A DNA stretch of 53,187 bases, from the IMG/VR virus record IMGVR_UViG_3300045988_092074, positions 1 to 53,187 of that record. One strand, written 5' to 3'. This document shows positions 1 to 53,187 of the stretch, piece by piece. Both the position numbers and the translations under genes were made by a program. Under the pieces are notes generated by a model. The model was not told where the DNA came from and ran no database searches. It saw only the letters and a list, made by a program, of their open reading frames with translations. The first letter of the stretch is position 1. Every line of letters begins with the position of its first letter. Source of the stretch: a virus.

Positions 1-85
1 ATTTTTTTTTATTCACTGCTTCCTGCTGAAGGAGCATTAACCCAATCAGTAAGAGGATTGAAGTCAAGTGATTCACGCTTAATAA
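1..85. repeat. Terminal 85-bp exact duplication (1-85 = 53103-53187): circular-assembly overlap or short direct terminal repeat
   Basis: Both ends read a+9T+attcactgcttcctgctgaaggagcattaacccaatcag...gattcacgcttaataa. Unit genome is 53,102 bp. Confidence 0.95.
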
Positions 86-665
86 TGTAGAATTTGTCAC
101 TCCAGTTAGGATTGAATGACCATTCAATGGTATTGCTGTCCGGCTCTTCAAAACCACCAAGTTTCTTATCGCCAACAAAGAACTTACCGATAGGAATTGG
201 GAAATATGCCGTAGGTTCATCCTGGTCATCTACCAAACAACCAATATTGCCGTTTTCATCAATCAGCCAAACACCAATCTCTTCGCACATGTATTGTTTC
301 AGCTGTGCAATTGTCTTTTGACTTTCCTGATAGATAGTGGCAGAGAATGTTGTCGGCTCACGGCCGATTGTAATCTCAATACCTCCAAGTGTTTGATTGC
401 CTCCGCCGAATGTGCGAGCTGCACCAGGCTCAGAAGTAGGCCCTTGGATATACGGAGAAACTGTCATTTTAGACCCATCCGCAGCAGAAAACAAGGTAGA
501 AAACGATGCTTTCTTAGTCGGGTTAGTGACAGAGTTCTTCGTTCCAGCTGTCTTATAGATACGCTGAAATGCAACTTTTTGAACTTGCCCCATACTCTCC
601 TTGCATTCAGCAATCTCAAGGTCGGCGATATGAGCACCGGCAGGGCATCCACAATTTAATCCCAT
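9..665 (-). CDS. Hypothetical protein, 218 aa, first gene of the transcription unit that continues across the junction into the portal gene
   Basis: ATG-initiated ORF preceded by a 250-bp intergenic region. No motif recognised. The 3' end lies in the terminal duplication. Confidence 0.6.
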   Translation of the reverse strand: MGLNCGCPAGAHIADLEIAECKESMGQVQKVAFQRIYKTAGTKNSVTNPTKKASFSTLFSAADGSKMTVSPYIQGPTSEPGAARTFGGGNQTLGGIEITIGREPTTFSATIYQESQKTIAQLKQYMCEEIGVWLIDENGNIGCLVDDQDEPTAYFPIPIGKFFVGDKKLGGFEEPDSNTIEWSFNPNWSDKFYIIKRESLDFNPLTDWVNAPSAGSSE

Positions 666-831: not shown

Positions 832-918
832 ATTCTCGCATTGTGTTCATTCAAAGCTTATGTTTTAATCATCTTTATATAGCAAAAAGCCTAGAAATTG
901 CGAGAATAATGCGAGAAT
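832..918. promoter_or_regulatory. GCGAGAAT-box cluster: attctcgcatt (832-842) inverted relative to aatgcgagaat (908-918), plus a tandem copy at 900-907 (11-bp phasing)
   Basis: Read directly. An 11-nt perfect inverted repeat separated by 65 nt, and two direct copies 11 bp apart, in the intergenic region upstream of the 9..665 gene. Confidence 0.6.
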
Positions 919-3531: not shown

Positions 3532-4326
3532 TCAATTTTGATTTTTTGCGATAAATTCTTTTTGTCTTTCTATCAGTTCAGCTTCTGATGGTATCTGTGC
3601 TTCTCTAAAGCGCCTATCTTTACTTTGGCTTATATCAATTATGGGTTGATAGATATAAGACCATATATATCCTCCTGCTGATTTTATATGGCCATTGCAA
3701 CACATGGATATATTACTTGCACAAATCCCAGTTTCTTCAGCTGCATCTTTTATGGAGGCATATTCATTTATAAATAACCCAGTATTTCTATCATAACTGC
3801 ATACTGACTTTGAAAGTCGCCCTCTTCTACACATATTATAAATACTATTATGCGGGTACATAGCATTTTTATCTACCTCATTCATAAGTTCTTGTAATAA
3901 TATGTTGGCATAATTTTGTTCAAAAGCATTGCCTGCTTTTATGAGAGTATTGTAGCCATAAGGCAAATATGTTCTATTTGCTTTTATCAATTCATATTTA
4001 CGGGCAAGTACTTCTGACTCATCTGTGAGTCCATGTTTTTCTATATTAACAGTTATGTATTTGCTGTTTAATAAAGCTTGTCTTAGCTCTATACTCTTTG
4101 CGTTTATGCTTAGAATTTGTCTGATTAGACTTTTTACTCCTCTATACACTGATTGATTGAAAGTATGACAGACTATGAGCCTACTATCAAATTCAAATTC
4201 TACAGTGAAGACTGCCCATTCATTTGATAGGCTATCTATGCTTGTAGTAATATCTACCTGTATGCCATCAATATTTACCATATTAGAAATTTTATTGCTA
4301 TTTATATTTACAACGTGAAAATACAT
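3532..4326 (-). CDS. Homing-endonuclease-like protein (degenerate GIY-YIG-like N-terminal region plus NUMOD-type DNA-binding module)
   Basis: The C-terminal motif SVCSYDRNTGLFINEYASIKDAAEETGICASNISMCCNGHIKSAGGYIWSY is the typical helix-turn-helix module of free-standing phage homing endonucleases. The central region ...NIEKHGLTDESEVLARKYELIKANRTYLPYGYN resembles the GIY-YIG core end. Confidence 0.5.
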   Translation of the reverse strand: MYFHVVNINSNKISNMVNIDGIQVDITTSIDSLSNEWAVFTVEFEFDSRLIVCHTFNQSVYRGVKSLIRQILSINAKSIELRQALLNSKYITVNIEKHGLTDESEVLARKYELIKANRTYLPYGYNTLIKAGNAFEQNYANILLQELMNEVDKNAMYPHNSIYNMCRRGRLSKSVCSYDRNTGLFINEYASIKDAAEETGICASNISMCCNGHIKSAGGYIWSYIYQPIIDISQSKDRRFREAQIPSEAELIERQKEFIAKNQN

Positions 4327-4582
4327 AAATAACTATATATATAAAAATTCTCGCACAGAAAATTCATAGGAAAAAAATTTTCAAGAAACAATATAAAACT
4401 TTTTGTTTCTCAGCAAAGTATTAAAAATCAATTAGTTAAGCATTCTCGCATTGCAAAATAAACGAAACAACGAATGCTCACTTACTTTTTATGGAATATG
4501 TAATATGTATTTATTATATTTTGGTTCATAAGTATAATAATTATAAATTCTATATTACAATTCATTCTATTTTTTAGTAATT

Positions 4583-4675
4583 TTATTGTTTATTTGTTTA
4601 TAATATATCTAACTCATTGAAAATCAATCACTTACAGAGAAACAATCGATTGTTTATTTTGTTTCTCTTGTTTAC
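4583..4675. repeat. Iteron element copy A (ttattgtttatttgttta ... aaacaatcgattgtttattttgtttctcttgtttac), homologous to 27024-27116
   Basis: An 18/18 nt block and a 33/36 nt block with an identical 57-nt offset in both copies. Contains the perfect 16-bp palindrome aaacaatcgattgttt (4640-4655). Confidence 0.85.
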
Positions 4676-5211
4676 AGCCTTTTTGCGAGAATACCTGAAT
4701 GACAGATTTTGCGAATTTTTGATTTGGTGGCAATTTGCGAGAATGATTTGGGGCCAAAAAATTTTTTTCTGATCATGAACATGGCTCTGTATACTATATA
4801 TAAGGGGCACCCAGGCACTGCAGCAGGGGGCCTAATTTCCACATTGGCAAAATTCTTGAAATATAAAAATCTATCAGGTTAAGAAGTGTTAAGCCTATCA
4901 GCCTAATTCGTTAATTATGGTTTAATTCGTTAAAGGTTATTAAGATGACTACCTGTTAACAACTCTTAACTAAAATAACTTTCAAGTTTCAAACCAGAGA
5001 CAGGCACACAGCCTCTCATATGACAACCTTTAATGAATGTTTAACATTTCCTAACCTAATATATTTCATGGTTTCGTAGGTTTTATTATCATAAAGGTAT
5101 AATTTATCAATTTCAGATTATTAATCAAAACAACCATCACATCTAACATGATTTAACTCATAGAATTTTTATATGATATTTGTTTTACATCCATCAAAAA
5201 ATTATCATATA

Positions 5212-5262
5212 AATTTTTCAGGTTCATAAATTATTAGTATATTTACATATCGAAAATAACGG
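5212..5262 (+). promoter_or_regulatory. Early promoter P1 (Bacteroidota-type, -7 box tatattta at 5238-5245)
   Basis: tatatttacatatcgaaaataac matches the family consensus TATATTTRCA..ATC(A/G)AAAATAA. A T-rich -33-like tttttca lies upstream. Confidence 0.5.
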
Positions 5263-5312
5263 ATAAAACGATCGAGGTTATAAATAAAATTTAACATAAA
5301 AAATTGATCAAA

Positions 5313-5365
5313 AGTTTTTCCGGTTAAAATAAAATGAGTATATTTACAATATCAAAATAAAACGA
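5313..5365 (+). promoter_or_regulatory. Early promoter P2 (-7 box 5339-5346)
   Basis: gtttttcc..17 nt..tatatttacaatatcaaaataaaac, directly upstream of the ATG at 5368. Confidence 0.6.
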
Positions 5366-5367
5366 TT

Positions 5368-5541
5368 ATGACACAGTTAGAAAGCTTCTTATTTGAATTA
5401 TCATTCGGAGATATTAAAAAAATCCGTGATTACATGTTAAAAAGATACCACGTATATTGTGGTTCAATGGTAAAATTGGCAAAAGAAATAGACGAGAGAT
5501 TGCCCGAGCCACTTGAAGAACTGTACGAAGTGCTCGCGTAA
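5368..5541 (+). CDS. Small early ORF, 57 aa (below the ORF-track cutoff)
   Basis: My translation is MTQLESFLFELSFGDIKKIRDYMLKRYHVYCGSMVKLAKEIDERLPEPLEELYEVLA*, starting 22 nt after the P2 -7 box. Confidence 0.5.
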   Translation: MTQLESFLFELSFGDIKKIRDYMLKRYHVYCGSMVKLAKEIDERLPEPLEELYEVLA

Positions 5542-7080: not shown

Positions 7081-7117
7081 TATTTTTTAACATAAAACTT
7101 GGAAAATAATTCTCAAA

Positions 7118-7172
7118 ACGGTTTTATAAATTGAATAAACATATTATATTTGCAATATCAAAATAAAACAAG
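7118..7172 (+). promoter_or_regulatory. Early promoter P3 (-7 box tatatttg at 7145-7152)
   Basis: ggttttat..17 nt..tatatttgcaatatcaaaataaaac. An exact TAnnTTTG match. The downstream leader aaaatttacagcattATG resembles the 32-nt leader end. Confidence 0.65.
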
Positions 7173-7198
7173 TAATAACAATTAAAATTTACAGCATT

Positions 7199-8663: not shown

Positions 8664-9093
8664 CGAGAATAATAGTAAACCAAATCTATAAAAAGAAATG
8701 AGGAGAGAATGAACGAGAATAATGAAATTTCATATATTTTTGAATAGCTCAGAGGCTCTATGTTTTTGACCAAAGATGTGATGCAGCAGTGAAAATTTTT
8801 ATGTTAAAACCTGTAAAACAGCAATCTATTTCAAGGTTATTTTGTATTTTAGCTTATAAAAGAACAAAAGTAAAACTGTTAAAATATGTTACACACTAAA
8901 ATGCATAAAAGCCGCATGGCTATCATGGTTAAGCGGCTTATGCTTGTAGGTGCAGAGTGCATATTCTGTTATGCCTACGTAAGTGTGATACAGAAGTTAG
9001 CGGGAGAAACGGCCGAGAGAATACTTGCCATGACTGGACAAGAGAATACTATAAGGTCTAACAGGAGAAATATCACAAGCATAACAGGAGAAT
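8664..9093 (+). promoter_or_regulatory. Relaxed GAGAAT/GAGAAA repeats upstream of the 9096 gene (8664, 8705, 8715, then 9004, 9017, 9042, 9065, 9088)
   Basis: Read directly. cgagaataat appears twice. gagaat 8705 and 8715 are 10 bp apart. The last four copies are spaced 23-25 bp apart. Confidence 0.35.
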
Positions 9094-9095: not shown

Positions 9096-9572
9096 ATGAG
9101 CAATTTTATTTTAGATTACAGCAAAAAGCAGACTTTGCAAATATCAAATGATGCTTTTTATTTTCTGTACTATGGTGAAGAGCCATTAGACGAAAATAAT
9201 TTAGAAGAAGCAAATGATGTGTCTGAAATGTTTTTCAATAACTTTTACATAGAAGATGATTGGAAAGCAGTTGATGATTCAGACCTTATAGAATGCACCT
9301 TTATTCCGTATATTGAAGATCAAGCAGATTATGATGAGTATGAGGATCTCACTAGACATATTCAGCAGCAAATAAAATGGCTTGATGCAAATCATGTTAG
9401 AGTATGGTGGTTTAATAGCCAAACTGGCACAAGAGAATTGCAAGGTGATTTTAAGGTTTATACAAACGAGTATGGTCATAAATGTTTTCATACCGGTAAT
9501 CAAGATGAGAACTTTATAACAGGAAAAATGTGTATATATTTTCTGAAAAATTTTAAGAAGCGCATATCCTAA
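9096..9572 (+). CDS. Hypothetical acidic protein, 158 aa
   Basis: ORF ending at the bidirectional terminator. Confidence 0.6.
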   Translation: MSNFILDYSKKQTLQISNDAFYFLYYGEEPLDENNLEEANDVSEMFFNNFYIEDDWKAVDDSDLIECTFIPYIEDQADYDEYEDLTRHIQQQIKWLDANHVRVWWFNSQTGTRELQGDFKVYTNEYGHKCFHTGNQDENFITGKMCIYFLKNFKKRIS

Positions 9573-9605
9573 AAAGCAGACTACAGAAAAGTAGTCTGCT
9601 TTTTT
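9571..9605. terminator. Bidirectional rho-independent terminator between convergent genes
   Basis: aaaaa-gcagactac-agaaaa-gtagtctgc-ttttt. An A-run and a T-run flank a perfect ~10-bp stem. Confidence 0.85.
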
Positions 9606-10326
9606 ACATTAGGCTTTCATCTTTTTCTACGACGAGAGAATAGCCGACACCTCTTATAGTTTCTATAACAACACGGCTGTCCATTTTAAGCATATTTCGC
9701 AACATACATATGTGAACGTCTAAGCTGCGTTTATTAAAGTAGTTATCATCAGCCCATACTTGTTGCATAAGTATTTTCTTAGGTAACGTTTCATTTTTAT
9801 AAGCGCATAGTAAAGCAAGAACTTGGCTTAGTTTATTATTAAGCTGTGTTTTTACATCGCCTACAGTAAGAATTTTATCTATTGTATTAAACAGGTAATC
9901 GCCTATCTCATAAGATGATTCTATATTTCTCACTCGTATACCGCACCTTTTTAAAACAGCTTTTATTCTTCTTATAAGCTCTTCAATATTATATGGCCTT
10001 ATTACGTAATCATCTGCACCTTCATCAAAAGCTTCTATGACATAATCATACCTAGCTTTATCTGACACCATTATTACTGGTATTTTATTATCTGATTTGC
10101 GTAAAAACTTTAATGGTTTTAACCTCATAGAAATATCTGTTGTCTTATAATGACTTAATATGCACAAGTCATAATTCTTTTCTCTGATTTTGGCCAATAT
10201 ATCCTTCTCAGTAGAGGTTATTACTTGAAAGCCATTATATACTAAGTAATCTACCAAAATTTTACAGTCTTCATCTTGATAGATTAAAATTCTCGGCAAT
10301 GCTAATTTAGTGTTATTACTTTTCAT
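9604..10326 (-). CDS. OmpR/PhoB-family response-regulator-like transcription factor with degenerate (phospho-acceptor-less) receiver domain
   Basis: 240 aa. The N-terminus aligns to the receiver fold (ILIYQDED..., VIMVSD, GADDYVIRPY). CILSHY sits where DLxxLD carries the acceptor Asp. The C-terminus is winged-helix Trans_reg_C-like (LSQVLALL...QQVW...RSLDVHICMLRNML...IETIRGVGYSL). Confidence 0.8.
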   Translation of the reverse strand: MKSNNTKLALPRILIYQDEDCKILVDYLVYNGFQVITSTEKDILAKIREKNYDLCILSHYKTTDISMRLKPLKFLRKSDNKIPVIMVSDKARYDYVIEAFDEGADDYVIRPYNIEELIRRIKAVLKRCGIRVRNIESSYEIGDYLFNTIDKILTVGDVKTQLNNKLSQVLALLCAYKNETLPKKILMQQVWADDNYFNKRSLDVHICMLRNMLKMDSRVVIETIRGVGYSLVVEKDESLM

Positions 10327-11201
10327 ACTATTTCTTTAATTTTGTTTTGTAAGTCATTATATAAAACTTCATACCAAAATGGATTAAGCCTTAACAAGTC
10401 AAAGTATGAGTATACACCTTTTTGGTATATTAAAGAAGCATATTTAAGCTCTTTGTCTGCTCTCTTTCTAAGATGCTCATGATAAAACTTTATGGACTGA
10501 TCTACATTTACCAAGAATAATGATTTATGCTCCATAAGAACTTTCTGCTCTGTGTTTTGAGCAAAATAGTATGGAATATCAGGCATTGCCCAAAAAGTCA
10601 ATCCAGAACCATATTCTTCACTTGCTTTGTATAAAAAGCCAGGGGATATTCGAATTGAGTCAGGATATAAGCTTTTACATATTCTTAATCTGCGCGGAAT
10701 AAAAGGATTAATCAATGTTGCTAATCGCTTATTTATATAAGCTGAATATTTATCCACCATCCGTGTATGCTCTTTAACAAGAGATGAAACCAGTAGTTTT
10801 ATTCTTTCGTTTCCTATAGGGTCACTAAGGCGTATATATTCTTGTCTAAAAGCTTCACGTTGGATGCGTATTCTATCTTCTTTAAGTCTTTGAGATTTTT
10901 TCTTTCTAGCTTCTATATTAGCCATTGCAGCTCTACGCTGTCCTTCAGGCCCAAATAGCTTTACACCATTGCAATTATTCCACCCTACACCAGTCCATGG
11001 CATTTTATCTCCATATCTAGCTTCAATCTCTCTGTTTTCCTGCTCTTCTTCAGATAATTCAACATGCTCTTCTTCCAAGGTAATTTTTTCAATTGCCTCA
11101 GATTGAGCCTCTTGAATATCCTCATCGTCGCTTTTAATTTCATCGAGAAATTCAAAGAGTTCCTTTTCGGTTAAGTCTCCATATTGCTTAATATCTTCCA
11201 T
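10323..11201 (-). CDS. Hypothetical protein, 292 aa (acidic N-terminus), translationally coupled to the regulator gene
   Basis: 4-nt overlap with the downstream gene. No kinase motifs seen. Confidence 0.6.
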   Translation of the reverse strand: MEDIKQYGDLTEKELFEFLDEIKSDDEDIQEAQSEAIEKITLEEEHVELSEEEQENREIEARYGDKMPWTGVGWNNCNGVKLFGPEGQRRAAMANIEARKKKSQRLKEDRIRIQREAFRQEYIRLSDPIGNERIKLLVSSLVKEHTRMVDKYSAYINKRLATLINPFIPRRLRICKSLYPDSIRISPGFLYKASEEYGSGLTFWAMPDIPYYFAQNTEQKVLMEHKSLFLVNVDQSIKFYHEHLRKRADKELKYASLIYQKGVYSYFDLLRLNPFWYEVLYNDLQNKIKEIV

Positions 11202-11936: not shown

Positions 11937-12617
11937 TTATAAGTTTTTAAGTTTTTGTTTATAATACTTTTCTTGCATATCAAAGTGTCTCTTATATATA
12001 TGCAAATCATGAGCAAAATGATAATAAGTGCCAATAGGTACACCAAGTTCATCTGCAACTAATTGTTGAAGCTTTGTCCAACAATATTGGTCATTGCAAA
12101 AGCCATAAACCAAATCGTTGCTTCGCATAGTTACACACATATCAAGAGTTCCTATTTGAGGCTTAATATCAAATCCGACTGATAGTGTACAAGGTGTATC
12201 ATGTTTATAGTCGTCTTTTTCTTTGCCGTCAAATATAGTAAGCCAAGCTTGACGAGTATCTTTATTCTCTCTAAGCTGCTTAATGCACTTTGCCAATTGA
12301 TTGTTGCGAGTCCATTGCCACCCATAGTTAGAATTGACAATATTGTCGCCACCGTGCATTTTATCCCATATAGGAGCATACTTTTTAATTTCAGCTACAC
12401 TCCTATCACATGACATGTACCAAGCGTATTCACGCTCTGCATATCGTTCGCTGAATTTGCGCCATTCTGTCGTTATAACTCGCTGCTGAGGATTAAGTAA
12501 ATAAAAACCAATGTTGTAAACAGCTCTTGTACCGACATTAGTATTTACTCCTTGGCCCATAATAAAAGCGTATAGATCTTCAAAAGCCTCAGTAGCATTT
12601 TTATAGGCTATGTTCAT
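11937..12617 (-). CDS. Thymidylate-synthase-superfamily enzyme resembling T4 gp42 deoxycytidylate hydroxymethylase
   Basis: Motifs APIWDKM, VNSNYGWQW, DTPCTLS (catalytic Cys), TMRSNDLVYGFCNDQYCW and DLHIYKRHF match what I recall of the dCMP hydroxymethylase pattern (INSNYGW, MRSNDVVFGFRNDYAW, SLHVYSRHF). Asp sits where ThyA has the dUMP-specifying Asn. I place the start at ATG 12617 (ATGA overlap with the upstream small ORF) rather than the TTG at 12644. Confidence 0.65.
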   Translation of the reverse strand: MNIAYKNATEAFEDLYAFIMGQGVNTNVGTRAVYNIGFYLLNPQQRVITTEWRKFSERYAEREYAWYMSCDRSVAEIKKYAPIWDKMHGGDNIVNSNYGWQWTRNNQLAKCIKQLRENKDTRQAWLTIFDGKEKDDYKHDTPCTLSVGFDIKPQIGTLDMCVTMRSNDLVYGFCNDQYCWTKLQQLVADELGVPIGTYYHFAHDLHIYKRHFDMQEKYYKQKLKNL

Positions 12618-12751
12618 TCTACCCAAATTTGTTTTGTTTGCCAATCCATTCTATTTCTTGATATTTTAAAAGCCTCTGCTTGTTTCCACGTATTAAAATA
12701 TTTAAGCAAAGTTCCCGTCGAGTCAAATACACCATATTGAATTTTTCCCAT
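12614..12751 (-). CDS. Small ORF, 45 aa (below the ORF-track cutoff)
   Basis: My translation is MGKIQYGVFDSTGTLLKYFNTWKQAEAFKISRNRMDWQTKQIWVE*. It fills the gap between two genes and is coupled at both ends. Confidence 0.4.
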   Translation of the reverse strand: MGKIQYGVFDSTGTLLKYFNTWKQAEAFKISRNRMDWQTKQIWVE

Positions 12752-13459: not shown

Positions 13460-13478
13460 GATAATTAAAAAGTTTATA

Positions 13479-13564
13479 TATTCTCGCGCGTTCTAGAGCA
13501 CGCTTATTATTCCATTATTATTCACCATTCATGTACTTAAAGCGCGATATTGCGCGCGAGAATA
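13479..13564. promoter_or_regulatory. Perfect 12-bp inverted repeat tattctcgcgcg / cgcgcgagaata (GCGAGAAT boxes) separated by 62 nt
   Basis: Read directly (13479-13490 and 13553-13564). Occupies the whole intergenic gap between dut and the next gene. Confidence 0.7.
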
Positions 13565-13580
13565 ATGTGAAAATCAATCC

Positions 13581-14075
13581 TTAGTATGACCCAGTAGACC
13601 CGAGTGCCCCATCACCACGCTCAGATGAACGGCTGAAAAGCTCTGACTCAGAAACTTCTTCAAGGCCTTCATACGATACAGGCACAAGAATAAATTGTGC
13701 TATTTTCATACCTGGTTTAATGTGGACTTTAGCTTTACCTACGTTAACAAGATGTATATGAATTTCACCTTGATAATCTTCATCTACAATCTTGGCTCCT
13801 AGGATAACAATGCTCTCAAATGCTTCTGGCTTCGGTTTTCTATTAGCCATAATACAAGCCCATTTAGAAGTTACGACTCCTGACTTATCAGCTGCCATAA
13901 GCATATATCCTTCTGGAATCTCCATCTTAATACCTGATGGTATTAAAATATCAGTTCCTGGATTTACGATAAAACCTTTGTTACTACCGAAATTAGGAAC
14001 GAAAAAATCAATTCCTGCTGCCTTACCAGTTCCACGAACAGGGGATTTTACATTTCTTATTTTTGCAAATTTCAT
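13581..14075 (-). CDS. dut: Trimeric dUTPase-family nucleotide pyrophosphatase
   Basis: Motifs KAAGIDFF, IVDEDYQGEIHIHL and the C-terminal SERGDGALGSTG. Motif 2 reads AADKSG instead of the usual PRSS. Confidence 0.8.
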   Translation of the reverse strand: MKFAKIRNVKSPVRGTGKAAGIDFFVPNFGSNKGFIVNPGTDILIPSGIKMEIPEGYMLMAADKSGVVTSKWACIMANRKPKPEAFESIVILGAKIVDEDYQGEIHIHLVNVGKAKVHIKPGMKIAQFILVPVSYEGLEEVSESELFSRSSERGDGALGSTGSY

Positions 14076-14996: not shown

Positions 14997-15818
14997 TTAC
15001 ATTAAATCGTCCTCGAATAAGCTTGGTTGCTCAGTGACTTTAGGAGCAACTTTTATATCTCCTGGCTTGCGCTCTAACACCCAAAGAGTATTGCGCGAAG
15101 CATCCGGAAACATAGGAGCCATTATATTGGAAACGAGATTTGAGTCATAGTAATCTTTAAGAGCATCAAACATTTTTTGTTGCCAATCATTCATCAATGG
15201 CTTATAGTCTTTAGCCGAAGCAAATGTGCCGAACTTATTTACTATATCAAAATGTTTCAACAATATGCCTTCAAGCTCCCAATGGTCAAACTCTTGTACG
15301 TCAACCCCACGCCCATCACCAGAATCATAAGTATGATTACCAGCCGCTCCTACAGATGGATCGTAGTTCGGAGTTGAAAGATAATAAGTGGCGTCGTTAT
15401 TACCACAAGCCTTAAAGTTTTCCAAAAAAGCATCTGCATTCTGTTTGCCAACGTGCTCGATCACTTCAAAGGCACATACTTTATCAGCATTAAACTTGCT
15501 GAAATCCATGCAGTTTTTAACAAGATCAGCGACATAGAAATGAGCCCAAGGTATATCAGCATATTTTTCTGCTGCTCCTTGAATTGTTTTCTCACGAATA
15601 TCAATACCGATATATTCTTTCTGCTTAAACTTGTTTCGGTATAATACTTCAAGCAAGTTAGCAGCCCCACAGCCAAAATCAACAATAGATTCGCCAATCT
15701 TAGCCTCTTTCAGAATGTGAGTCCATCGCAGATAATGCGCAAATTGGTCTCTGTGGAATACGTGGCGCTCAAAAGCCTGATCAGGCCTGAGGTCTGTTGT
15801 GTTATATACTTTTGCCAT
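14997..15818 (-). CDS. Class I SAM-dependent methyltransferase, 273 aa (substrate unknown)
   Basis: Motif I VDFGCGAANLL, post-I GIDI, and FEVIEHV. No DPPY/NPPY-type DNA-MTase motif seen. Confidence 0.7.
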   Translation of the reverse strand: MAKVYNTTDLRPDQAFERHVFHRDQFAHYLRWTHILKEAKIGESIVDFGCGAANLLEVLYRNKFKQKEYIGIDIREKTIQGAAEKYADIPWAHFYVADLVKNCMDFSKFNADKVCAFEVIEHVGKQNADAFLENFKACGNNDATYYLSTPNYDPSVGAAGNHTYDSGDGRGVDVQEFDHWELEGILLKHFDIVNKFGTFASAKDYKPLMNDWQQKMFDALKDYYDSNLVSNIMAPMFPDASRNTLWVLERKPGDIKVAPKVTEQPSLFEDDLM

Positions 15819-16397: not shown

Positions 16398-16404
16398 CTT
16401 ATTA

Positions 16405-16458
16405 TCTTTATTTTGATGTGTAAATATATCAATTTTCTCCGAGAATAGAAAATTTTTT
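16405..16458 (-). promoter_or_regulatory. Early-type promoter P5 (minus strand, -7 box = complement of 16421-16428)
   Basis: The minus strand reads ttttctattctcggagaaaattga-tatatttacacatcaaaataaagataataagATG. Confidence 0.6.
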
Positions 16459-16503
16459 CATCATAAAATGCATCTACTTAACACTTCTTAACTTAGCAAT
16501 GCT

Positions 16504-25936: not shown

Positions 25937-26356
25937 TTACAGTGATTCTAAGAAGTTATACATTTCGTCATATTTAGCCGGGTCAAGCTTTGTCACACTC
26001 GGGGCTCCAAGCTCATTGAGTTTCTGCTTAATCTCGTCACGATGCTCATTGACTTTTTCTGCGAGCATGCCGCGAACATCCTCAATGTTCTTAGAGGCAG
26101 AAGAAGCAGCCGGAGCAGCAGGTGCTGAAGGTGCAGGTTTGGCAGCGCTTTGAGTCTGAGCAGGTGCTGCAGGCTGGGTAGTAGGTTTTGCAGGAGCTGG
26201 CTTTGCTGGTGCGGCAGGAGCAGCCGGAGCGGGCTTGGCAGCCGGAGCAGCAGGTGCTGAAGGAGCAATAGCATTACCAAACAATGACTTAATGAAATTC
26301 TGCGTATTTTCAGACAGGTTTACGCTAACCTCAACAGAAATTTTAATCGTTTCCAT
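25937..26356 (-). CDS. Two-domain protein with a ~70-aa Ala/Pro-rich linker, 139 aa
   Basis: APSAPAAPAAKPAPAAPAAPAKPAPAKPTTQPAAPAQTQSAAKPAPSAPAAPAA low-complexity core. Locally GC-rich DNA. Confidence 0.6.
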   Translation of the reverse strand: METIKISVEVSVNLSENTQNFIKSLFGNAIAPSAPAAPAAKPAPAAPAAPAKPAPAKPTTQPAAPAQTQSAAKPAPSAPAAPAASSASKNIEDVRGMLAEKVNEHRDEIKQKLNELGAPSVTKLDPAKYDEMYNFLESL

Positions 26357-26759: not shown

Positions 26760-26780
26760 ATTTTGGTGATTTTTATTATC

Positions 26781-26828
26781 TTATTTTTGATATGCAAATA
26801 TACAAATTATTCTCGATAGAAAAAATTT
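26781..26828 (-). promoter_or_regulatory. Early-type promoter P4 (minus strand, -7 box = complement of 26795-26802) with a CGAGAATAAT box in the spacer
   Basis: The minus strand reads ttttttctatcgagaataatttg-tatatttgcatatcaaaaataagataat...ATG(26759). Confidence 0.6.
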
Positions 26829-26871
26829 ATTTCATTAATTTTGAGAATTTATTTTGTTAAAAATATTTAAG

Positions 26872-26904: not shown

Positions 26905-27023
26905 TAAACAAAGAAACAATAGAAACAATCTCCCCTATTATTTCAAACTTAATTTCTTAATTTCCGATTAACATTAGTGTTAATAAGAAATACCAGCTTT
27001 TACTACGAGAAGATTTAATGAAA

Positions 27024-27116
27024 TTATTGTTTATTTGTTTACAGCATATATAAGTAATTGATTTTGAGCACTTTAGGCGTAAACAATGGATTGTTTATAT
27101 TGTTTCTATTGTTTAC
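27024..27116. repeat. Iteron element copy B (homolog of 4583-4675). More half-sites at 26904-26930 (gtaaacaaagaaacaatagaaacaatc).
   Basis: See copy A. The last block overlaps the stop codon of the spanin-like gene. Confidence 0.85.
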
Positions 27117-27505
27117 CGCTTTATAAAGTATTTTGCACACAGCCCTATAATTATTAAGATTATGGTAGTTTTCAGGTATTCGTCTATGTTAATTTTTATC
27201 TTTTGCCACTTTGTGAGCTGAGCTTCCACAGGATATGCAATTTGAATCGTATCAACTTTTTCTCGCCAGAGAGTATCATGCTTTTCTATGTATTTATACA
27301 AATATTTATATTTACTGAGATACACGGTATCACCTTTGCGCTCTACATAGATTGAATCTCTATGATATATGCTATCAATTTTGGTCTGAGATAAGTAAGT
27401 AGTATCTCTTTTCATTGTTTCCACAGGCACATATTGAATTGACTTACAGCTGTATAATATAGTGGCTAAAAATATAAATGTAATTATTCTCGCTAATTCT
27501 CGCAT
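27113..27505 (-). CDS. Unimolecular-spanin candidate (N-terminal lipoprotein signal plus C-terminal transmembrane helix)
   Basis: 130 aa. MRELARIITFIFLATILYSC has a lipobox-like LYSC. The C-terminus TTIILIIIGLCAKYFIKR is hydrophobic. Last gene of the lysis cassette. Same architecture and size class as T1 gp11. Confidence 0.55.
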   Translation of the reverse strand: MRELARIITFIFLATILYSCKSIQYVPVETMKRDTTYLSQTKIDSIYHRDSIYVERKGDTVYLSKYKYLYKYIEKHDTLWREKVDTIQIAYPVEAQLTKWQKIKINIDEYLKTTIILIIIGLCAKYFIKR

Positions 27506-27544
27506 AATCTTCGAATTTTATTTGTTATTATTCATATTTAATAT

Positions 27545-27589
27545 AAAAACCATTCTCGTAATAATTTCTTATGTGCGAGAATGGTTTTT
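27545..27589. terminator. Bidirectional terminator-like hairpin whose stem is built from GAGAAT boxes
   Basis: aaaaaccattctcg / cgagaatggttttt is a 14-bp perfect stem with a 17-nt loop, flanked by A- and T-runs. It sits between the amidase and spanin-like genes. Confidence 0.65.
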
Positions 27590-27596
27590 ATACACT

Positions 27597-33464: not shown

Positions 33465-36400
33465 TTACGCCGCTTTTAAATTGTTCAACTCTTCTCTTAA
33501 CTCTTTCACCTCTTCTTCAAGGTCTGCTATACGCTTGTCCTTGTCGGTCATCCATGACTTTGTAGGGCCGATGAACTTATCCAGCTTAATATTAAGCTCA
33601 TTGATGCCATTGATTGACACTACAGTAGCCAGCGTAGCGTAATCAACGGTCAATATATCACCATAATCCGGCGTGCTAGCGGCGCCTATAACCTCCGGGA
33701 ATACATTACGCACCTCTTGGGCGCTAACGCCTATCCTAGTCTTTTTGTCACCTATATCAATGCGCTTGTGATAGAAAGCATACAAGTTTTTTATCTTGTC
33801 AAGAACGCCAGATACGTTCATGCCTCGTTCTTTTAAGCGTATATCCGAACCATTGGTATAGTTACCTGCTACGTACATATTTCCAGATGGAGAGAATGAG
33901 CCTTTATTGTTGTTTGTTCCTCCAAAACAGAAATATACTATATTATCACCACGCTGCGACAAATAGAAATTGTTTGTACCTCCTTGTAACCCAAATGCAG
34001 CCCATGTAGCTTTTACTGTTACGATGTTAGTAACAATACCACCGTTGAATGAAGGTCCTGCAGGCCCAGTCGGCCCCTGTGGCCCAGTCGGCCCCTGTGG
34101 GCCGGTAGCACCTTTAGGCCCCTGTGGCCCGGTAGCCCCTTGCGGCCCACGAATATTCCTCGTGGTTGGAGTAGTCGTTGACGTGCTGTTCGTCCAGCTA
34201 AGATTACCACTCGTATCAACCGATGGATACCAGTATTTAAATGGAGCTGGAGCGTTCCCCGTGGAATATGCCACGACATCACCAGTGGCTCTTATATTTT
34301 TGCTAGACGTGAAATTACTCGTACAATTCAACGTGTCGCTTGACGTGGTTATGAGCCGGGACGTGTAATCAGCCGTGCTATTACCGTGGTGGAAGTCGAT
34401 ATGTGGAGTGGAAGCATTTAGCTCAATAGATCCTTTACCAATATAAGTATTACTGCTATTACTATTAGCACTTGTATTAGCTTCTCCCACATATACGCCT
34501 TGCGTAAAATATCCATTTGCGAATCTAGTTCCCGTACTTCCTATATTATAAGTGTTGTTAGCTCTAGGATAGATATGGTTACTGTTGATATTTGTTTTTA
34601 TAGTAAAAATACTATTATTCCAATATCCTATTTCCGATCCTACAGCATCTCCAGCTCCAGTTCCAGCGTAAAAACTATATCCTGATGTTCCCCTGTGGCC
34701 AAACAGTATAATATTAGCATCATAGGCATTTATATTAAGCTGGCCACTTTCTAATGAAGTTAATAAATATATGCCATTTCTGTATATAGTAAAAGTGTTG
34801 TTAGTCGAATAGATATTGCCGACATTTTCTAAGCTACCAAAAATGTTGGCCGTTCCATCAAACGATCTTCCCCAAATGGTTCTGGCCGTCATTAGCTTCG
34901 TGGCGCTTGAGGCGCTTGAGGCGTTTCCGATTAATGATCCTTCAAAAATAGATGCTGTTATATGGGAATCTTTAGCATAATTCCCACCATTATCGGATTT
35001 TGACAAGGCTATTGGCTCTACATAGTATTCATAACCAGCTGAAGTACTTCCAACATTAGTTCTAGCATAGTAAGTATTTATACTGTTTATTCCAGCACTG
35101 CAATATATTCTATAAGTAGCTGTTCCCCCTCTTAGCCAAAATACGATAATGGGTTTGTCATTTCCCCGAACTTCTACTTTCTTCAACAAACTTGCATACG
35201 GTTGTAGATTGCATAGTGTAGTAAAAAAGTTCGCATTGCCATCCCAAGACCCTATTCTGCCAATACCTATGTAATTAATACTACTAGTTTTATTACTATG
35301 GTTGCCATCCCAATTAGGATTTGATGTTGAACCTAACGATTTACCTACACCTATTGTATATGGGACTCCATTGGTATTAACTGCAACTTCTAAAACTACA
35401 GGATAGAATGCGTTATAATCATTTGTTACCGTTATTTCCCTAGACCTAGCAGTACTAGTATGATACCAATCAATTGTTGTATTATATAAATTACTCCTAT
35501 GATACCCATCTACCATATCAGCGTTAAGGTTATTGCATAACGTGGTAGAAACCACATCAATAGGTTTAGTTCCAGTGGCTACCTTGGAGATATAACGGCC
35601 TGTGTTGTACAGAAACATATTAGGGTCGCTACCCTCTAAAATGCCTTCCTTGCTTATAGCGATCCCATATCCAGCTAAAAACGTATCATAATACTCGTGT
35701 CTTAATATCACGTTTTGTGTTGCGTCTTGCGCAGCGGTGAATTTTATACCTGCGGCCTTGCTTTTTGCATCACTAACAGTTGATTTAAGTGTCAATTGGC
35801 TATTGATAGTATTAGATGCTATAGTTAACGCCCCGGTCATCGTATCACCTGCTTTTTTCACGTACTTGCTGTCGAGCGTAGCAGCATAATTAGCAGTGGT
35901 CAACGCTGTTAAATCCTTGGTAAACGTTATTATCTTCTTGTCAGAGCTGAGCGTTGCGTTTGTAAGTACATTGCCATTTCCTGTAACTGATATCCCCCCG
36001 ATAGTACCGGTTCCAGATACTGATATAGTTCCGTCAGCTGATATAGATATGCCAGACCCGATCTTCACCGCCCCAAGCGAGTTTGTACCGGCTATAGGAA
36101 GGACTATGTCGCCGGAACCAGTGGCGTAAGCGACTACATCGCCACCCGCTTTCACGTTTCCACTAAATATTGAATCAATTGCATTAATATTAAATTCCTT
36201 CAAACACGTATTTAAGTACCCGCTTAGATGAAAATTATATGATGCTACACCATTTTTACCATATTGCAACCATAGATCAGTTGAAGTTGATTCTACTATT
36301 CTAAATGATGTACCATTATTAGCGTGATATCCGTCTATGTATGTATATGATACATTTGCTGTACCATCGGCTTTAAGCCCTAACAATGATGATGCGCCTC

Positions 36401-39113
36401 TTATATCTAGTTTTGCTTGTGGGGCGGTCGTACCTATACCAACGTTTCCATTAGATATAATTCTCATCCTTTCATTTAAATCGGTAGATGTTCTGAATAT
36501 AATGGTGGAACCAGATAAGATAGTATTAGTATTTTTTTGTGCGTTACCAGTGCCAATGAACAATTCGTTAAATGAGCTAATATAAAATACAGACATATCA
36601 CTCCCATCTGTATGTTTGGCATATATATTTCTTGCGTTATTCATAGTTATATTCCCTACCCCTGTCATATTACCGGATACGTTCTGTGTCCCATCGAAGT
36701 TTTGGCCCCAAATGGTTCGGGCCGTCATTAGCTTCGTGGCGCTTGAGGCGTTTCCGACAAATGCCCCTGAATATCTCCACTTATTATTCTCCGTGCCGAA
36801 CAATTGCAAATTTCCACTAAGACTATTGAACTGCCCACTACAATACTTAGGTAATAGTGTTGTCGCATCATACCCATTGCTACTATATAATGATAGCACA
36901 AACCATCCATTGGAATTAGGAGTTGCTATTCCTTGCAGCGTTATACTCCCACGATTGGCGTAACTCTTAATAGCCCATTTACATATAGCTTTCAAATAAT
37001 CCTCTGTGGGATGCCCAGCGCTTTCATAATCACTTCTTAGCAATCCTTGGGAAATCAAAGTGCTCCATGATGGGAAATTAAGGTACAGAGCTACTTGATT
37101 ATTTGCAAACCCAGCGTGATGCCCATCTACCATATCAGCATCCAATCCGGAGCCGGAGCCATCATTATCCTTATGCCAGAACGTGAGCCCCTTGGTAAAG
37201 GCTATAATCTTATTATCGTTCGTCAACTCTACATCTGTAAGGGCGTTCCCGGTTCCTGTTTTCGTTATACCAGACACGCTACCACCGACATCGCCCGCCA
37301 CGCTCAGCGTTCCATCTGTAGCTATATTAAGACCGCTCCCAACCTTGACCATGCCTAACGCCCCGGTACCGGCTATAGGGCTTATGATATCATAATTCCC
37401 TGTAGCGTAGGCAACGATATCACCGGTAGCCAAAACGTTATCACTGGCGTCCACCTTGACATAATGGTTATCGTCCTTATAATTGAGGTATAAGTTGGAC
37501 AGCACGGCGTTCGTGCCTGTCATCCCGTTAATCGAGTTACCCCCAGAGAAACGGACCCATTGCGCCGATTTATCCTTGGCCACGTCAAATGTCTTGTCGC
37601 TGTTAAGGTGTATGAGGCCGTTGATGCTCGGCACGCCTGTCATCGCCCCGGTAGCTATCCCGTTGGAGTTGAGTTTCTGCCCCCACCATGTGGCGGCGTA
37701 TAGCTTGTCTCCTTCCAGTACAGTGCCCTTGGCATTACCGAACTTCACTGCGAACTGGTTCTGCGTATCCTCCGTGTTAGGTTGGTTCAATAATTGCAAA
37801 CCCGTTCCAGCGTAATAGATCTTACCCTTGCCGCCGAAATCAGGATCCAGCGATAATAGGCCGGTGGCAGAATCAATGATGAGCCCACTATCCTCCTTTA
37901 TCATAACAGCACCCAACATGCCATATCCTGCGTGGGGGAGTATGATGTCATGATCAGAGGTAGCGTAAGCCACGATGTCTCCTATTGATAATATGTGCTT
38001 AGCATTCTTAGGAATAAGATAACTATTATCTGGATCTGTATCAACATAGTTCCAATATCTATCAGCTAACTTATTGATAGAAAGCTTCATAGCTTCACCG
38101 TATCCTAAGTCTAATGCTAGATAACCGACTTCTGGTAAAGCATCATTCACATACTCAGTTAATTCTCTGATTAGTTTACCAGCAAATTCTGCTTGTACTG
38201 ATACTTGAACAGTTCTTGTATACTGCGCTATTACATCCTTGCCAAACATCAAGGGACTGCTCTTTTCATATAATAGCGCGTTATTAAAAGTCGTTCCAGA
38301 TTCAGAAGGGCCATTCAGTATATTTGCTATCTTAGTAACTACAGTATCTGTCTCAAATTCTGCGTCGACTGCCGCAACATCGCCGTAGTCTTCCCAATCC
38401 ACATTGACTGAGAATGATAAAGCTCTATATACTTTTCCATCGCTTGTTATATTTATGTTATCACACATACGAACAAGCCTTAATGCATCACACATAAATT
38501 CTGGTGCATTAAAAGTCATGTTGTATACTTTAGAACTGGTTTGCTTTTCTATAAACTTATAACCATCTCTTTCAGTAAGTTCTTCTTCAAAAGGATACGA
38601 AGGTTTACCTATTTTAGTGCTAAGATAGCATACAAACTTAAACCCTGAAGTGTAATCTATATGACCACCTTTAAAATAAAGATTGTCGTTATCCCAGTAC
38701 TCAAGTTTTATATAGCAACTAATGTTAGAAACTACTGTAAATACCTCTGAATACCAGGTTTTAGTACCTTGCTTTAATACTATATAGTGTCTGCCCTCGC
38801 TTAGTTTTGGAGATATTGTGCTATTCCCCTTATGCATCACTATGCTATAAGCATTGTTATCATCATCTGTATGATTAGTAACCTGTATATCGAGTTTGCC
38901 CGTTAAATCTATAGATTTATTACTATTAAGACTCTTTACTACTATACTGGTAACATTTCCTAGTGAGCCTGGAGACACGAATTGAAAGGGAAGAATGCTA
39001 TTATCCGGGGCTATAAGACCCCAGATACTACCATACACGTATGACTTGCGATGATTCTGTTGATCAATAGAATCATACCAAGCTAATATGTTAAAATTAT
39101 TGTTAGGTGACAT
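33465..39113 (-). CDS. Tail fibre, 1882 aa, with collagen-like triple-helix segment and C-terminal S74-type intramolecular chaperone domain
   Basis: (G-X-Y)10 [33 protein letters not shown]-terminal SDIRLKE...[14 protein letters not shown]...VDYATL (about 33468-33848) plus a terminal coiled coil. Repeated modules GD(I/V)VAYATxxxDIxxPIAGxxxLGxVKxGSG (four copies), LxADMVDG(H/Y)H (three copies) and [17 protein letters not shown] (two copies). Confidence 0.9.
34053..34148 (-). repeat. Collagen-like G-X-Y repeat coding segment (32 codons)
   Basis: Read directly. This GC-rich block generates spurious ORFs in other frames and on the other strand. Confidence 0.9.
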
Positions 39114-45842: not shown

Positions 45843-46111
45843 AATAAAATTCGCGTTATAGGGGTTGACACTATAGGAGTAAATATAATGCTCATCTCGT
45901 TAAAGATAATAGCGAGAATAATAGCGAGAATAAGTGACGTCCAAAAACTTAAACAAAAATCACACTCGAATAATTGAGAGATAAGCTTAGGGGCCTCAGC
46001 GACTATTTTGTCGCGTATGCCAAGCCTTTCAGCAAGTAAAATAGCAAATGCGGCTGATGAAGATATGTATATCAAAGCCGAAAGCATTGTTATAAAATAT
46101 ACCGTTGACAT
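45839..46111 (-). CDS. Small membrane protein, 90 aa
   Basis: Three hydrophobic segments. Contains a 12-nt tandem duplication carrying two GCGAGAAT words (45912-45919 and 45924-45931, coding ILAIILAI). Confidence 0.5.
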   Translation of the reverse strand: MSTVYFITMLSALIYISSSAAFAILLAERLGIRDKIVAEAPKLISQLFECDFCLSFWTSLILAIILAIIFNEMSIIFTPIVSTPITRILL

Positions 46112-53102: not shown

Positions 53103-53187
53103 ATTTTTTTTTATTCACTGCTTCCTGCTGAAGGAGCATTAACCCAATCAGTAAGAGGATTGAAGTCAAGTGATTCACGCTTAATAA
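53103..53187. repeat. Second copy of the 85-bp terminal duplication
   Basis: Identical to 1-85. Confidence 0.95.

Follow-up and report, generated by a model that had tools for sequence, protein, structure and literature searches.

The gene at 9604..10326 (- strand) raises the question of what a virulent-looking phage does with a two-component response regulator whose phosphorylation site has been dismantled, and where in its own genome such a protein might act. The window, by which we mean the whole 53,187-nucleotide stretch of DNA that was analysed, is a complete circular phage genome of 53.1 kb. The phage is of a Bacteroides type that is very common in the human gut. Pfam searches of the 55 window proteins found no integrase, and the nearest cultured relatives are B. 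fragilis phages isolated from sewage; both observations agree with the first-pass annotation of this DNA, which had described the phage as virulent-looking. The same searches found no second recognisable transcription factor beside the regulator.

The open reading frame begins with ATG and encodes 240 residues, including the segments ILIYQDED, DLCILSHYK and VIRPY and the C-terminal ...IETIRGVGYSLV. Its identification as an OmpR/PhoB-type regulator with a pseudo-receiver domain draws on the reading frame itself, Pfam, NCBIfam, an AF2 model and Foldseek. A receiver-like domain spans residues 12-127 (9946..10293, - strand), as judged from alignments, secondary structure, Foldseek, dN/dS and a codon check, and a winged-helix DNA-binding domain spans residues 138-233 (9628..9915, - strand), as judged from the Trans_reg_C match, the strand/helix pattern and dN/dS. 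Both Pfam profiles score above their cut-offs, Response_reg with 39.1 bits (9.6e-10; cut-off 30.2) and Trans_reg_C (PF00486) with 62.2 bits over residues 160-231 (4.9e-17; cut-off 26.2). The AF2 model (pLDDT 89) has the complete two-domain OmpR/PhoB fold, in which the receiver part forms five strand/helix repeats at a pLDDT of about 90, the CheY-like (beta/alpha)5 fold, and superposes on PmrA and VicR receiver domains with TM scores of 0.85-0.89 and rmsd values of 1.8-2.1 Å. Foldseek pairs the full-length model with KdpE, PrrA, RpaA and PmrA. The protein therefore has the N-terminal receiver fold and the C-terminal Trans_reg_C winged helix that define the OmpR/PhoB architecture, as the first-pass annotation had proposed by eye.

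Loss of the phospho-acceptor, also read by eye at first, is reproduced by three independent alignments (phmmer against PrrA, phmmer against RegX3, and MAFFT against PhoB and OmpR). All three place Ser58 (AGT, 10153-10155) in the acceptor column, opposite the Asp of PrrA, that of RegX3, or PhoB D53 and OmpR D55, and Arg110 (9997-9999) at the position of the conserved Lys. They also put Gln17 (10276-10278) and Asp18 opposite PhoB E9-D10 and the PrrA DD, so that the acidic pair, which had been described as retained, is only half so: Asp18 is kept and the first acidic residue has given way to Gln17. Ser88 stands at the T/S position and Tyr107 at the aromatic switch, and the MAFFT alignment shows D105, D106, E116, R120 and R127 to be invariant with PhoB and OmpR. 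In the AF2 model the active-site-equivalent residues sit where strands beta1, beta3, beta4 and beta5 reach their C-terminal ends, as in true receivers. The protein thus lacks the acceptor Asp, the full acidic pair and the Lys of a canonical receiver while keeping the T/S position as Ser88, and falls into the class of pseudo-receivers or atypical response regulators.

These substitutions are shared by relatives. Across 81 unique phage genes Gln17 is found in 80, Arg110 in 79 and Ser88 in all 81, and position 58 is Ser in 76, Gly in 3 and Asp in 2. In successive clades the acceptor codon runs from Asp (GAT/GAC) through Gly (GGT/GGA) to Ser (AGT), a stepwise path of active-site decay within the family. 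The regulator falls in a 90%-identity protein cluster of 2863 sequences, dozens of IMG/VR contigs of ~50 kb carry the gene, and all 28 of the nearest 50%-identity cluster representatives are pseudo-receivers. At least 70 clusters (50% identity) share the synteny, and each of the six family members sampled ends the same phage replication/nucleotide module. The phage gene is one of a large pseudo-receiver regulator family.

Its nearest canonical relatives are found in cells. Among NCBIfam models RprY scores best (NF051850; 167 bits, 4.3e-49), ~60 bits above PhoB, but the score is far from the RprY equivalog cut-off of 370 bits, and the regulator is a derived RprY relative and not an orthologue. 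Two cellular RprY-like regulators (P0149 and P0150) are the closest relatives with a canonical receiver, each beside a HisKA/HATPase_c kinase, and their recognition-helix regions are very close to that of the phage protein (DDNYFNxRSxDV...LRxxLKxD). The phage itself encodes no such partner: none of the 55 window proteins has a HisKA or HATPase_c match in Pfam, in line with what had been claimed from the letters.

As first suggested, the regulator is the last gene of a leftward operon, which runs from 13459 to 9604. It is followed by a perfect hairpin, AAAAAGCAGACTACAGAAAAGTAGTCTGCTTTTTT, read directly from the sequence at about 9573-9603 (9573..9603, no strand assigned), which resembles a bidirectional intrinsic terminator and separates the regulator from a convergent + strand gene (9096-9572). 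Upstream, the stop codon of a 292-residue protein (10323..11201, - strand) overlaps the regulator start as ATGA. This neighbour has no assigned family, with no significant match in Pfam, NCBIfam or PHROG, and its AF2 model was unusable (pLDDT 43; the alignment held sequences of ≥92% identity). From gene order only, we infer that the regulator would build up just before late expression.

The candidate targets of the regulator are copies of GCGAGAAT, which occurs exactly 14 times in the whole genome against 1.61 ± 1.14 in shuffled sequences, an excess of about 9-fold. Ten of the 14 are intergenic, in a genome of which intergenic DNA makes up 7.9%, and the extended box reads YGCGAGAATR. The boxes stand in tandem at 10, 11 or 12 bp or have inverted partners ~77 bp apart; for most, no second half-site can be detected at a distance of 10-11 bp. 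They mark four (or five) module junctions. Three are upstream of the packaging operon, the head gene and the regulator operon, and another follows the lysis cassette. Unit a (832..918) precedes the head-protein gene (665..9), which matches the major head protein family phrog_8193, and contains a single box at 832-839 (-) as well as a tandem pair on the + strand (900-907 and 911-918; period 11 bp). The divergent control region that separates the packaging operon from the early genes of the + strand (4347..4744) has boxes at 4347-4354 (-), 4442-4449 (-), 4685-4692 (+) and 4737-4744 (+), the first of them 20 nt before the ATG at 4326. Unit c (13460..13580, - strand), between the dUTPase gene and the regulator's operon, holds an inverted pair (13480-13487 and 13556-13563) whose proximal box again lies 20 nt before an ATG, that of the terminal operon which ends with the regulator. 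For an activator site these two positions 20 nt before a start codon are odd. Unit d (27486..27582), which follows the lysis cassette with its amidase and holin genes, has a tandem pair at 27486-27493 and 27496-27503 (-) with a period of 10 bp and a further box at 27575-27582 (+). There is also a degenerate tandem pair, GAGAGAAT-GA-ACGAGAAT (8703..8720, + strand; period 10 bp), followed after 14 nt by a -7 element of the Bacteroidota type, TATTTTTG (8735-8742). A sigma-70 promoter scan of the window performed no better than on shuffled sequences, as expected for a Bacteroidota host. Repeats of the AAACAA type were considered separately as regulator sites and rejected; the 53-kb window has 28, confined to two duplicated segments of ~110 nt, and 50 kb of the regulator-lacking sister phage BF503P2 has 34.

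The boxes track the regulator gene. Their density is 3.2-6.6 per 10 kb in phage loci that carry the regulator and 0-1.4 in those that lack it (Mann-Whitney p = 2.7e-5), which is the co-occurrence that the first-pass annotation had looked to if the regulator reads the boxes. The few boxes of the regulator-lacking loci are isolated and, by reading (no ORFs were called there), in coding-like context. In the 50 kb of BF503P2, for example, there are 2 boxes, and the head gene is preceded by a canonical TTTG/TATATTTG promoter. In regulator-carrying phages the position and sequence of the boxes, including those of unit c, are conserved down to 41-43% regulator identity. Two regulator-carrying phages at 35-37% identity have no exact boxes, and their recognition helices read QSTLTV and GRCMDVA as against RSLDV[HY]. 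The residue aligned with the base-contacting Arg201 of PhoB is variously M, R, T, H or I among phages with the same box. Co-occurrence may go back to a single evolutionary gain and is therefore not phylogenetically independent evidence. Taken with the enrichment, intergenic placing and tandem spacing of the boxes, and with the lack of a second recognisable transcription factor, it gives the regulator as candidate reader of the boxes independent but correlative support.

We propose that a cellular RprY-like OmpR/PhoB two-component regulator was captured by the phage lineage, its kinase being left behind, and was then domesticated. The sequence shows an acceptor site taken apart at three positions, where E/D has become Gln17, Asp has become Ser58 and Lys has become Arg110, in a protein whose two domains are both kept under strong purifying selection. 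The product would be active without phosphorylation, in the manner of HP1043, ChxR and GlnR, its pseudo-receiver serving as a constitutive dimerisation module through alpha4-beta5-alpha5, where the conserved charged residues are retained. Its activity would depend on how much of it is produced from its distal place in the replication/nucleotide-metabolism operon. Its targets would be the YGCGAGAATR boxes, whose tandem 10-12 bp period fits a head-to-tail OmpR-type dimer, and because these boxes lie at module junctions, including that upstream of its own operon, it would govern the middle-to-late programme together with its own synthesis. To this whole chain, from domesticated kinase-less regulator through box targets to middle-to-late and self control, we give a probability of roughly 0.55. 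Its parts differ in strength. That the protein is a functional, phosphorylation-independent DNA-binding protein is very probable, whereas we would put even odds on the GCGAGAAT boxes as its sites.

The chief alternative accepts such a regulator but takes the boxes to be structural or genomic elements, such as terminator or RNA-processing stems or module-boundary sequences; the regulator would then act elsewhere, for example in early-gene shut-off or on its own operon through sites that escaped detection. Several boxes do pair into stable hairpins, and so could be RNA or DNA structural or module-boundary elements. In unit d the box at 27575-27582 and a near-copy at 27552-27559 form a 15-bp hairpin (folding z = -5.2) flanked by A and U runs, with the U-run following, and the unit looks like a bidirectional terminator; unit c has a long-range stem of 12 bp (z = -3.35), and in unit a two boxes pair with each other (z = -2.3). 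Two relatives (L129 and L082) have short box-loop-box hairpins followed by T-runs, the inverted pairs are invariably at module junctions, and in unit c a box-adjacent hairpin has survived sense-strand changes that are compatible with G.U pairing. tRNA and Rfam scans of the window gave no match, so the inverted units are not known RNA families. Against structure alone, the tandem direct repeats 10-12 bp apart and the arrays within 4347-4744 do not fold (z = 0.3 and -0.7), and the sister phages that lack the regulator gene have lost the boxes as well. The identical 8-mer moreover recurs at non-homologous junctions and across phages in which the intervening sequence has diverged, and its conservation while the surroundings differ points to sequence-specific recognition over mere complementarity. 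We regard the structural account as possible but doubtful.

A further reading casts the protein as a host-takeover factor that has kept RprY-like specificity, or that pairs with a host RprY-type regulator, and so rewires gene expression in the host as a constitutively active or dominant-negative mimic. The ranking of RprY as the best NCBIfam model and the near-match of the recognition-helix region to P0149 and P0150 both favour this, and conservation of the alpha4-beta5-alpha5 residues makes heterodimers conceivable. In P. gingivalis, RprY is an autoregulating repressor (PMC6032018), but the RprY studies, that one included, give no binding motif with which the boxes could be compared. Five cellular rprXY-like loci, which are not from known hosts, contain neither GCGAGAAT nor CGAGAAT, whereas the boxes are plentiful in the phage's own genome and track the regulator gene. 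A scan of contigs for GCGAGAATN{2,4}GCGAGAAT is silent on a host regulon, the matches listed being scattered over unrelated taxa with no enrichment for Bacteroidota. We consider host takeover unlikely, and it is compatible with the domesticated-regulator explanation rather than exclusive of it.

Selection bears on whether the receiver still responds to a signal. Over 1953 gene pairs the receiver had a dN/dS of 0.063 and the DNA-binding domain one of 0.102, values that indicate strong purifying selection on the degenerate receiver and winged helix alike. That the receiver is the more constrained of the two would suit a sensor, controlled by a small ligand, by a partner such as the 292-residue protein or by a host kinase that targets a different residue. 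Pseudo-receivers regulated by ligands, redox state or partners are known (PMC12632262), and the gene for the 292-residue protein is translationally coupled to that of the regulator, an adjacency kept in several lineages. Homologues of this protein are, however, also present in sister phages without the regulator, BF503P2 among them, no kinase is encoded by the phage and nothing points to a ligand; with the Asp, the Lys and the first acidic residue lost, canonical phosphotransfer is implausible. Signal control of this kind therefore seems improbable. The idea that the gene is a functionless, decaying remnant of a captured host regulator, for which the loss of three of five catalytic residues might speak, is effectively refuted by the selection analysis, and the gene is intact within its 2863-member cluster and syntenic across the 70 or more clusters noted above. 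The substitutions, the fold, the missing kinase and the purifying selection all favour the phosphorylation-independent pseudo-receiver factor that the first-pass annotation had envisaged.

Proteins of this kind have been seen before under other names. The PHROG family phrog_731, of unassigned function, matches the regulator over its full length (1.3e-33), so response-regulator-like proteins of phages or prophages were already catalogued, and public records label the protein 'DNA-binding response OmpR family regulator' or 'response regulator [Caudoviricetes sp.]'. Among GenBank phages, megablast with the 4.2-kb region gave no match, and tblastn with the regulator gave less than 60% identity throughout (best ~33%) and no Bacteroides phage. 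Many of the records listed by tblastn look like host-genome fragments and not true phages. A literature search on phage-encoded response regulators found nothing relevant. Neither the pseudo-receiver nature of the family nor its proposed link to a box regulon is annotated in phrog_731 or the public records.

A more far-reaching reading, which we hold tentatively, is that in a whole lytic lineage of abundant gut Bacteroidota phages the host-type promoters of the late and middle junctions have given way to a private YGCGAGAATR regulon read by this family, the pseudo-receiver timing or sensing when the packaging, head and lysis genes fire. The device would be either concentration-dependent dimerisation or the sensing of a host cue. 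If true, a disabled two-component response regulator would here serve as a phage developmental switch, the first of its kind to be characterised. How gut Bacteroides phages outside the crAss-like group time their gene expression is, to our knowledge, essentially unknown. The locus offers a testable candidate regulator-operator pair, with one protein, a box of 8-10 bp and a natural comparison in sister phages that lack both.

At pho boxes, PhoB binds tandem direct repeats of 7-8 bp with an 11-bp period, which replace the upstream promoter element. The phage tandem boxes are similar in their 10-12 bp period and in the placing of the degenerate pair 14 nt upstream of a -7 element; PhoB, in contrast, requires phosphorylation, and the phage boxes are mostly single or have a distant inverted copy. 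RprX-RprY of the Bacteroidota is the best-scoring curated family and has a similar recognition-helix region, and the nearest canonical relatives of the phage protein have an rprX-like kinase immediately upstream; the phage regulator differs in lacking the Asp, the Lys, the first acidic residue and the kinase, and in its score of less than half the RprY cut-off. The alpha4-beta5-alpha5 face is where OmpR/PhoB regulators form dimers, and many pseudo-receivers pair there unphosphorylated (PMC12632262). Among these, GlnR of actinomycetes (8hih) and RitR of Streptococcus (5u8m) are atypical OmpR-family members, both found by Foldseek, with receiver-like domains repurposed for dimerisation or redox sensing (PMC12632262). 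GlnR keeps its Asp, in charge interactions, and RitR relies on a linker Cys; the phage protein shows no evident sign of either. HP1043 (HsrA) of Helicobacter pylori (PDB 2hqr; Foldseek rank 22, phmmer 7e-14) is likewise an orphan OmpR/PhoB member with a degenerate receiver and is phosphorylation-independent (PMC8345958, PMC5253667). It is a cellular, essential master regulator of about 23% identity, whereas the phage protein is virus-specific and of the Bacteroidota RprY-like lineage. The closest model for binding of tandem boxes by a constitutive dimer is ChxR of Chlamydia trachomatis, an atypical OmpR/PhoB protein that forms dimers and recognises direct repeats while unphosphorylated (PMC3960148); its gene lies on the chromosome of an intracellular bacterium, and the likeness is at the level of the family. 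Phosphorylation-independent OmpR-family members are thus already well established, and our understanding of response regulators is unchanged by one more. The catalogue of pseudo-receivers nevertheless gains a virus-specific family, phages being unmentioned in a 2025 review of bacterial pseudo-receivers (PMC12632262), and the regulator described here is a phage-specific addition to that known class.

The reading frame at 9604-10326 (minus strand) encodes a 240-residue protein carrying exactly the motifs quoted in the first-pass annotation, and both of its halves gave Pfam matches above the gathering cut-off: Response_reg (9.6e-10, 39.1 bits) and Trans_reg_C (4.9e-17, 62.2 bits). The top NCBIfam model was the Bacteroidota regulator RprY (4.3e-49, at 167 bits far lower than the equivalog cut-off of 370 bits), followed by PhoB, OmpR and other family members, and phmmer against PDB sequences aligned the protein over its full length with PrrA, RegX3, PmrA/BasR, MtrA and others. 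Active-site positions were read from the phmmer alignments with PrrA and RegX3 and from MAFFT alignments with E. coli PhoB and OmpR, all of which agree. The phospho-acceptor column holds Ser58, with no Asp, and the conserved Lys column Arg110, just as the annotation had proposed; the Thr/Ser column is Ser88 and the aromatic-switch column Tyr107. Its statement that the acidic pair is retained was only half right, because the alignments place Gln17-Asp18 there: Asp18 is kept and the first position is now Gln. Three of the five catalytic residues are altered. An AlphaFold2 model (pLDDT 89.2) puts these substitutions at the C-terminal ends of β1, β3 and β5 of a (β/α)5 receiver that is followed, as expected, by a winged helix. 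Foldseek matched this model to full-length OmpR/PhoB regulators at probability 1.0 and to isolated receiver domains at TM 0.85-0.89. The fold of the regulator is that of OmpR/PhoB, and its phosphorylation site is disabled.

More than 500 homologues of the regulator were found; 2863 proteins, on contigs about 50 kb long, fall into its own 90%-identity cluster. Gln17 is present in 80 of 81 unique genes taken from IMG/VR and other contigs, Ser58 in 76 (Gly in 3 and Asp in 2) and Arg110 in 79. Both domains are under strong selection, and the substitution rates indicate a degenerate receiver that is functional and is not decaying, with a median pairwise dN/dS of 0.063 (0.102 for the DNA-binding domain). 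In an exhaustive search reduced to 50%-identity representatives, the closest 28 clusters are all pseudo-receivers, the majority having the Asp but lacking the acidic pair or the Lys; pseudo-receivers make up 76 of the 140 full-length representatives, and the first canonical E-D-D...D...T...K proteins come in at about 39% identity. The six pseudo-receiver relatives whose contigs were examined all come last in one and the same phage module, preceded by SNF2, DUF6378, dUTPase and Thymidylat_synt genes. The two closest canonical proteins are cellular, and a HisKA/HATPase_c kinase is encoded directly upstream of each. The acceptor codon is GAT/GAC (Asp) in distant clades, GGT/GGA (Gly) in a sister clade and AGT (Ser) in the window phage, a path of single-nucleotide steps. 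The simplest history would be that an RprY-like regulator was captured without its kinase and later lost the phosphorylation chemistry. The regulator represents a large, virus-specific family that occupies one fixed position in a widespread gut phage lineage.

Because positions 1-85 recur exactly at 53103-53187 as an 85-nt direct repeat, the window represents an entire phage genome of about 53.1 kb, circular or terminally redundant. Pfam and PHROG searches identified terminase, scaffold and head proteins, a tail fibre with an S74 chaperone, holin and amidase, together with a family-A DNA polymerase, VapE-type primase/helicase, SNF2 helicase, DUF2800 nuclease, Enc34-type ssDNA-binding protein and thymidylate-synthase-like enzyme. 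The tail fibre (33465-39113, 1882 residues) carries collagen-like GPxGPx repeats (34054-34143) as well as its C-terminal S74 domain, and a small protein at 25937-26356 has Ala/Gly-rich repeats of 9-nt period at 26097-26267. The nearest cultured relatives are the sewage-derived Bacteroides fragilis phages BF503P2, BF486P2 and others, which are fully syntenic with the window phage (terminase 68% identical) and which lack the regulator gene but keep its 292-residue neighbour. The dUTPase homologue at 13581-14075 was assigned by correspondence with the annotated dUTPase of BF503P2 and related contigs. It lies between the thymidylate-synthase-like gene (11937-12644), whose BF503P2 homologue is annotated as a deoxycytidylate 5-hydroxymethyltransferase, and a SAM methyltransferase gene (14997-15818); as a set, the three are a hint that DNA bases may be modified in phages of this group. 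A homing-endonuclease-like protein with NUMOD1 and I-HmuI-like domains is encoded at 3532-4326, with the control region on one side and the terminase genes on the other; only a 45-residue piece of it matches BF503P2, which makes a mobile insertion probable.

Pfam scans of all 55 window proteins detected no HisKA, HATPase_c, integrase or sigma-factor domain, bearing out the earlier claim that the phage encodes no histidine kinase, and no sequence-specific transcription-factor domain other than that of the regulator. The regulator gene had also been placed last in a leftward operon. It is indeed the final gene of a long minus-strand replication and nucleotide-metabolism block, its start overlapping the stop of the 292-residue gene (10323-11201) in an ATGA, and between it and the convergent plus-strand genes lies a perfect bidirectional terminator hairpin.

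The window holds 14 copies of GCGAGAAT (1.61 ± 1.14 in shuffled sequences). Ten of them fall in intergenic DNA, which makes up 7.9% of the genome, and 2 more right where an ORF begins. The consensus drawn from 219 distinct instances in related phages is YGCGAGAATR. These boxes recur in two layouts, as tandem direct repeats spaced by 10-12 bp and as inverted pairs, always ATTCTCGC...GCGAGAAT, spaced by 68-79 bp in units of 84-87 bp. Box units are located at module junctions. One precedes the head-protein gene (832-918) and another lies in the divergent control region ahead of the packaging operon (4347-4744); a third follows the dUTPase gene (13480-13563), which places it upstream of the operon whose last gene is the regulator, and a fourth comes after the lysis cassette (27486-27582). 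The -7 element at 8735 has a degenerate tandem pair 14 nt upstream. Two exact boxes 12 nt apart at 45912-45931, conserved in relatives, fall within a 90-residue ORF (45839-46111) and may merely encode a repeated hydrophobic peptide, the product of a 12-nt tandem duplication, and not a regulatory site.

That the boxes are binding sites of the regulator we put at about even odds (roughly 0.5), since there is evidence on both sides. The regulator is the sole recognisable transcription factor of the genome, and the tandem period of the boxes suits head-to-tail OmpR-type dimers. Regulator-carrying phages down to 41-43% regulator identity (contigs L082, L164/165 and L295) keep both the boxes and the post-dUTPase unit, with divergent sequence in between. 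A search for co-occurrence of gene and box in related phages, proposed in the first-pass annotation, covered terminase-related IMG/VR loci spanning the relevant region and found 3.2-6.6 boxes per 10 kb in 10 loci with the regulator and 0-1.4 in 13 without it (Mann-Whitney p = 2.7e-5), the few boxes of the latter being isolated and in apparently coding-like contexts. In the 50 kb of BF503P2 there are two boxes, and its head gene is preceded by a canonical TTTG/TATATTTG promoter; two remoter regulator-carrying phages without exact boxes differ in the recognition helix. The motif is private and enriched, and co-occurs with the regulator gene. Against this, or neutral, the co-occurrence could have arisen in a single evolutionary event, phages that share the box differ in the residue aligned with PhoB Arg201, and two boxes lie 20 nt ahead of a start codon. 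Several boxes form stable paired structures, among them a terminator-like 15-bp hairpin in the unit after the lysis cassette (z = -5.2) and a 12-bp long-range stem in the post-dUTPase unit (z = -3.35); no folding was seen for the direct-repeat boxes in the control region (4347-4744). In a host-genome scan for tandem boxes the matches listed were scattered and apparently due to chance, and the RprY papers give no binding motif.

The scan of the window returned no Rfam family or tRNA accounting for the box units. In comparison with L082, L164 and L295, a small GC hairpin (GCGCG-CAATAT-CGCGC) that adjoins the upstream box of the post-dUTPase unit (13474-13569) is preserved; because the relatives' changes stay G.U-compatible on the sense strand only, and because a TCTAGA-centred palindrome by the downstream box is also conserved, an RNA-level element is suggested. 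At 27545-27590 a box and its near-complement form a 15-bp hairpin flanked by A- and U-runs (z = -5.2), a structure resembling a bidirectional terminator where the lysis cassette ends. A duplicated intergenic segment of about 110 nt (79-88% identity), with one copy in the divergent control region (4573-4681) and the other upstream of the replication module (27014-27122), is rich in (G/T)(A/T)AAACAA repeats and 16-18 bp palindromes such as AAACAATCGATTGTTT, and could represent iterons, an origin or the sites of another factor. Bacteroidota-type -7 elements (TAnnTTTG variants) lie upstream of the plus-strand early genes and the replication module, and are matched by a promoter-like repeat, TATATTT(A/G)CA(A/T)ATC(A/G)AAAATAA, found upstream of the early genes (5197-5267, 5298-5368 and 7104-7174) and, on the minus strand, of replication-module genes (26773-26835 and 16399-16461), the last two with a one-mismatch box directly upstream (TCGAGAAT and CCGAGAAT). 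The distant regulator-carrying phage contig L166 (37% regulator identity, higher GC) has apparent tRNA-like genes (GGACTCGAACC-type 3' arms) and no GCGAGAAT box in a 430-nt gap at 10128-10557, and its phage probably infects a different host.

We infer that the regulator dimerises constitutively through α4-β5-α5, because the MAFFT alignment shows D105, D106, E116, R120 and R127 to be identical in PhoB and OmpR, and because OmpR/PhoB regulators use this face for dimerisation, many pseudo-receivers among them without being phosphorylated (PMC12632262). Such a dimer would bind the boxes in a way that depends on its concentration, and would control late and middle transcription units as well as its own operon.

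Pseudo-receivers account for several percent of all receiver domains. Literature searches yielded no characterised phage-encoded regulator of the pseudo-receiver OmpR type; phosphorylation-independent OmpR-family regulators are well established in HP1043, ChxR, GlnR and RitR (PMC8345958, PMC5253667, PMC3960148, PMC12632262), and the atypical regulators HP1043, RitR and GlnR were among the Foldseek matches to our model. Databases already label the phage protein as a response regulator ("DNA-binding response OmpR family regulator", "response regulator [Caudoviricetes sp.]"), and PHROGs holds a matching family, phrog_731, annotated as of unknown function. What is new is its recognition as a pseudo-receiver, its place in a large virus-specific family that holds a constant position in a widespread lineage of gut phages, and its tie, by association, to a conserved box system missing from the sister phages.
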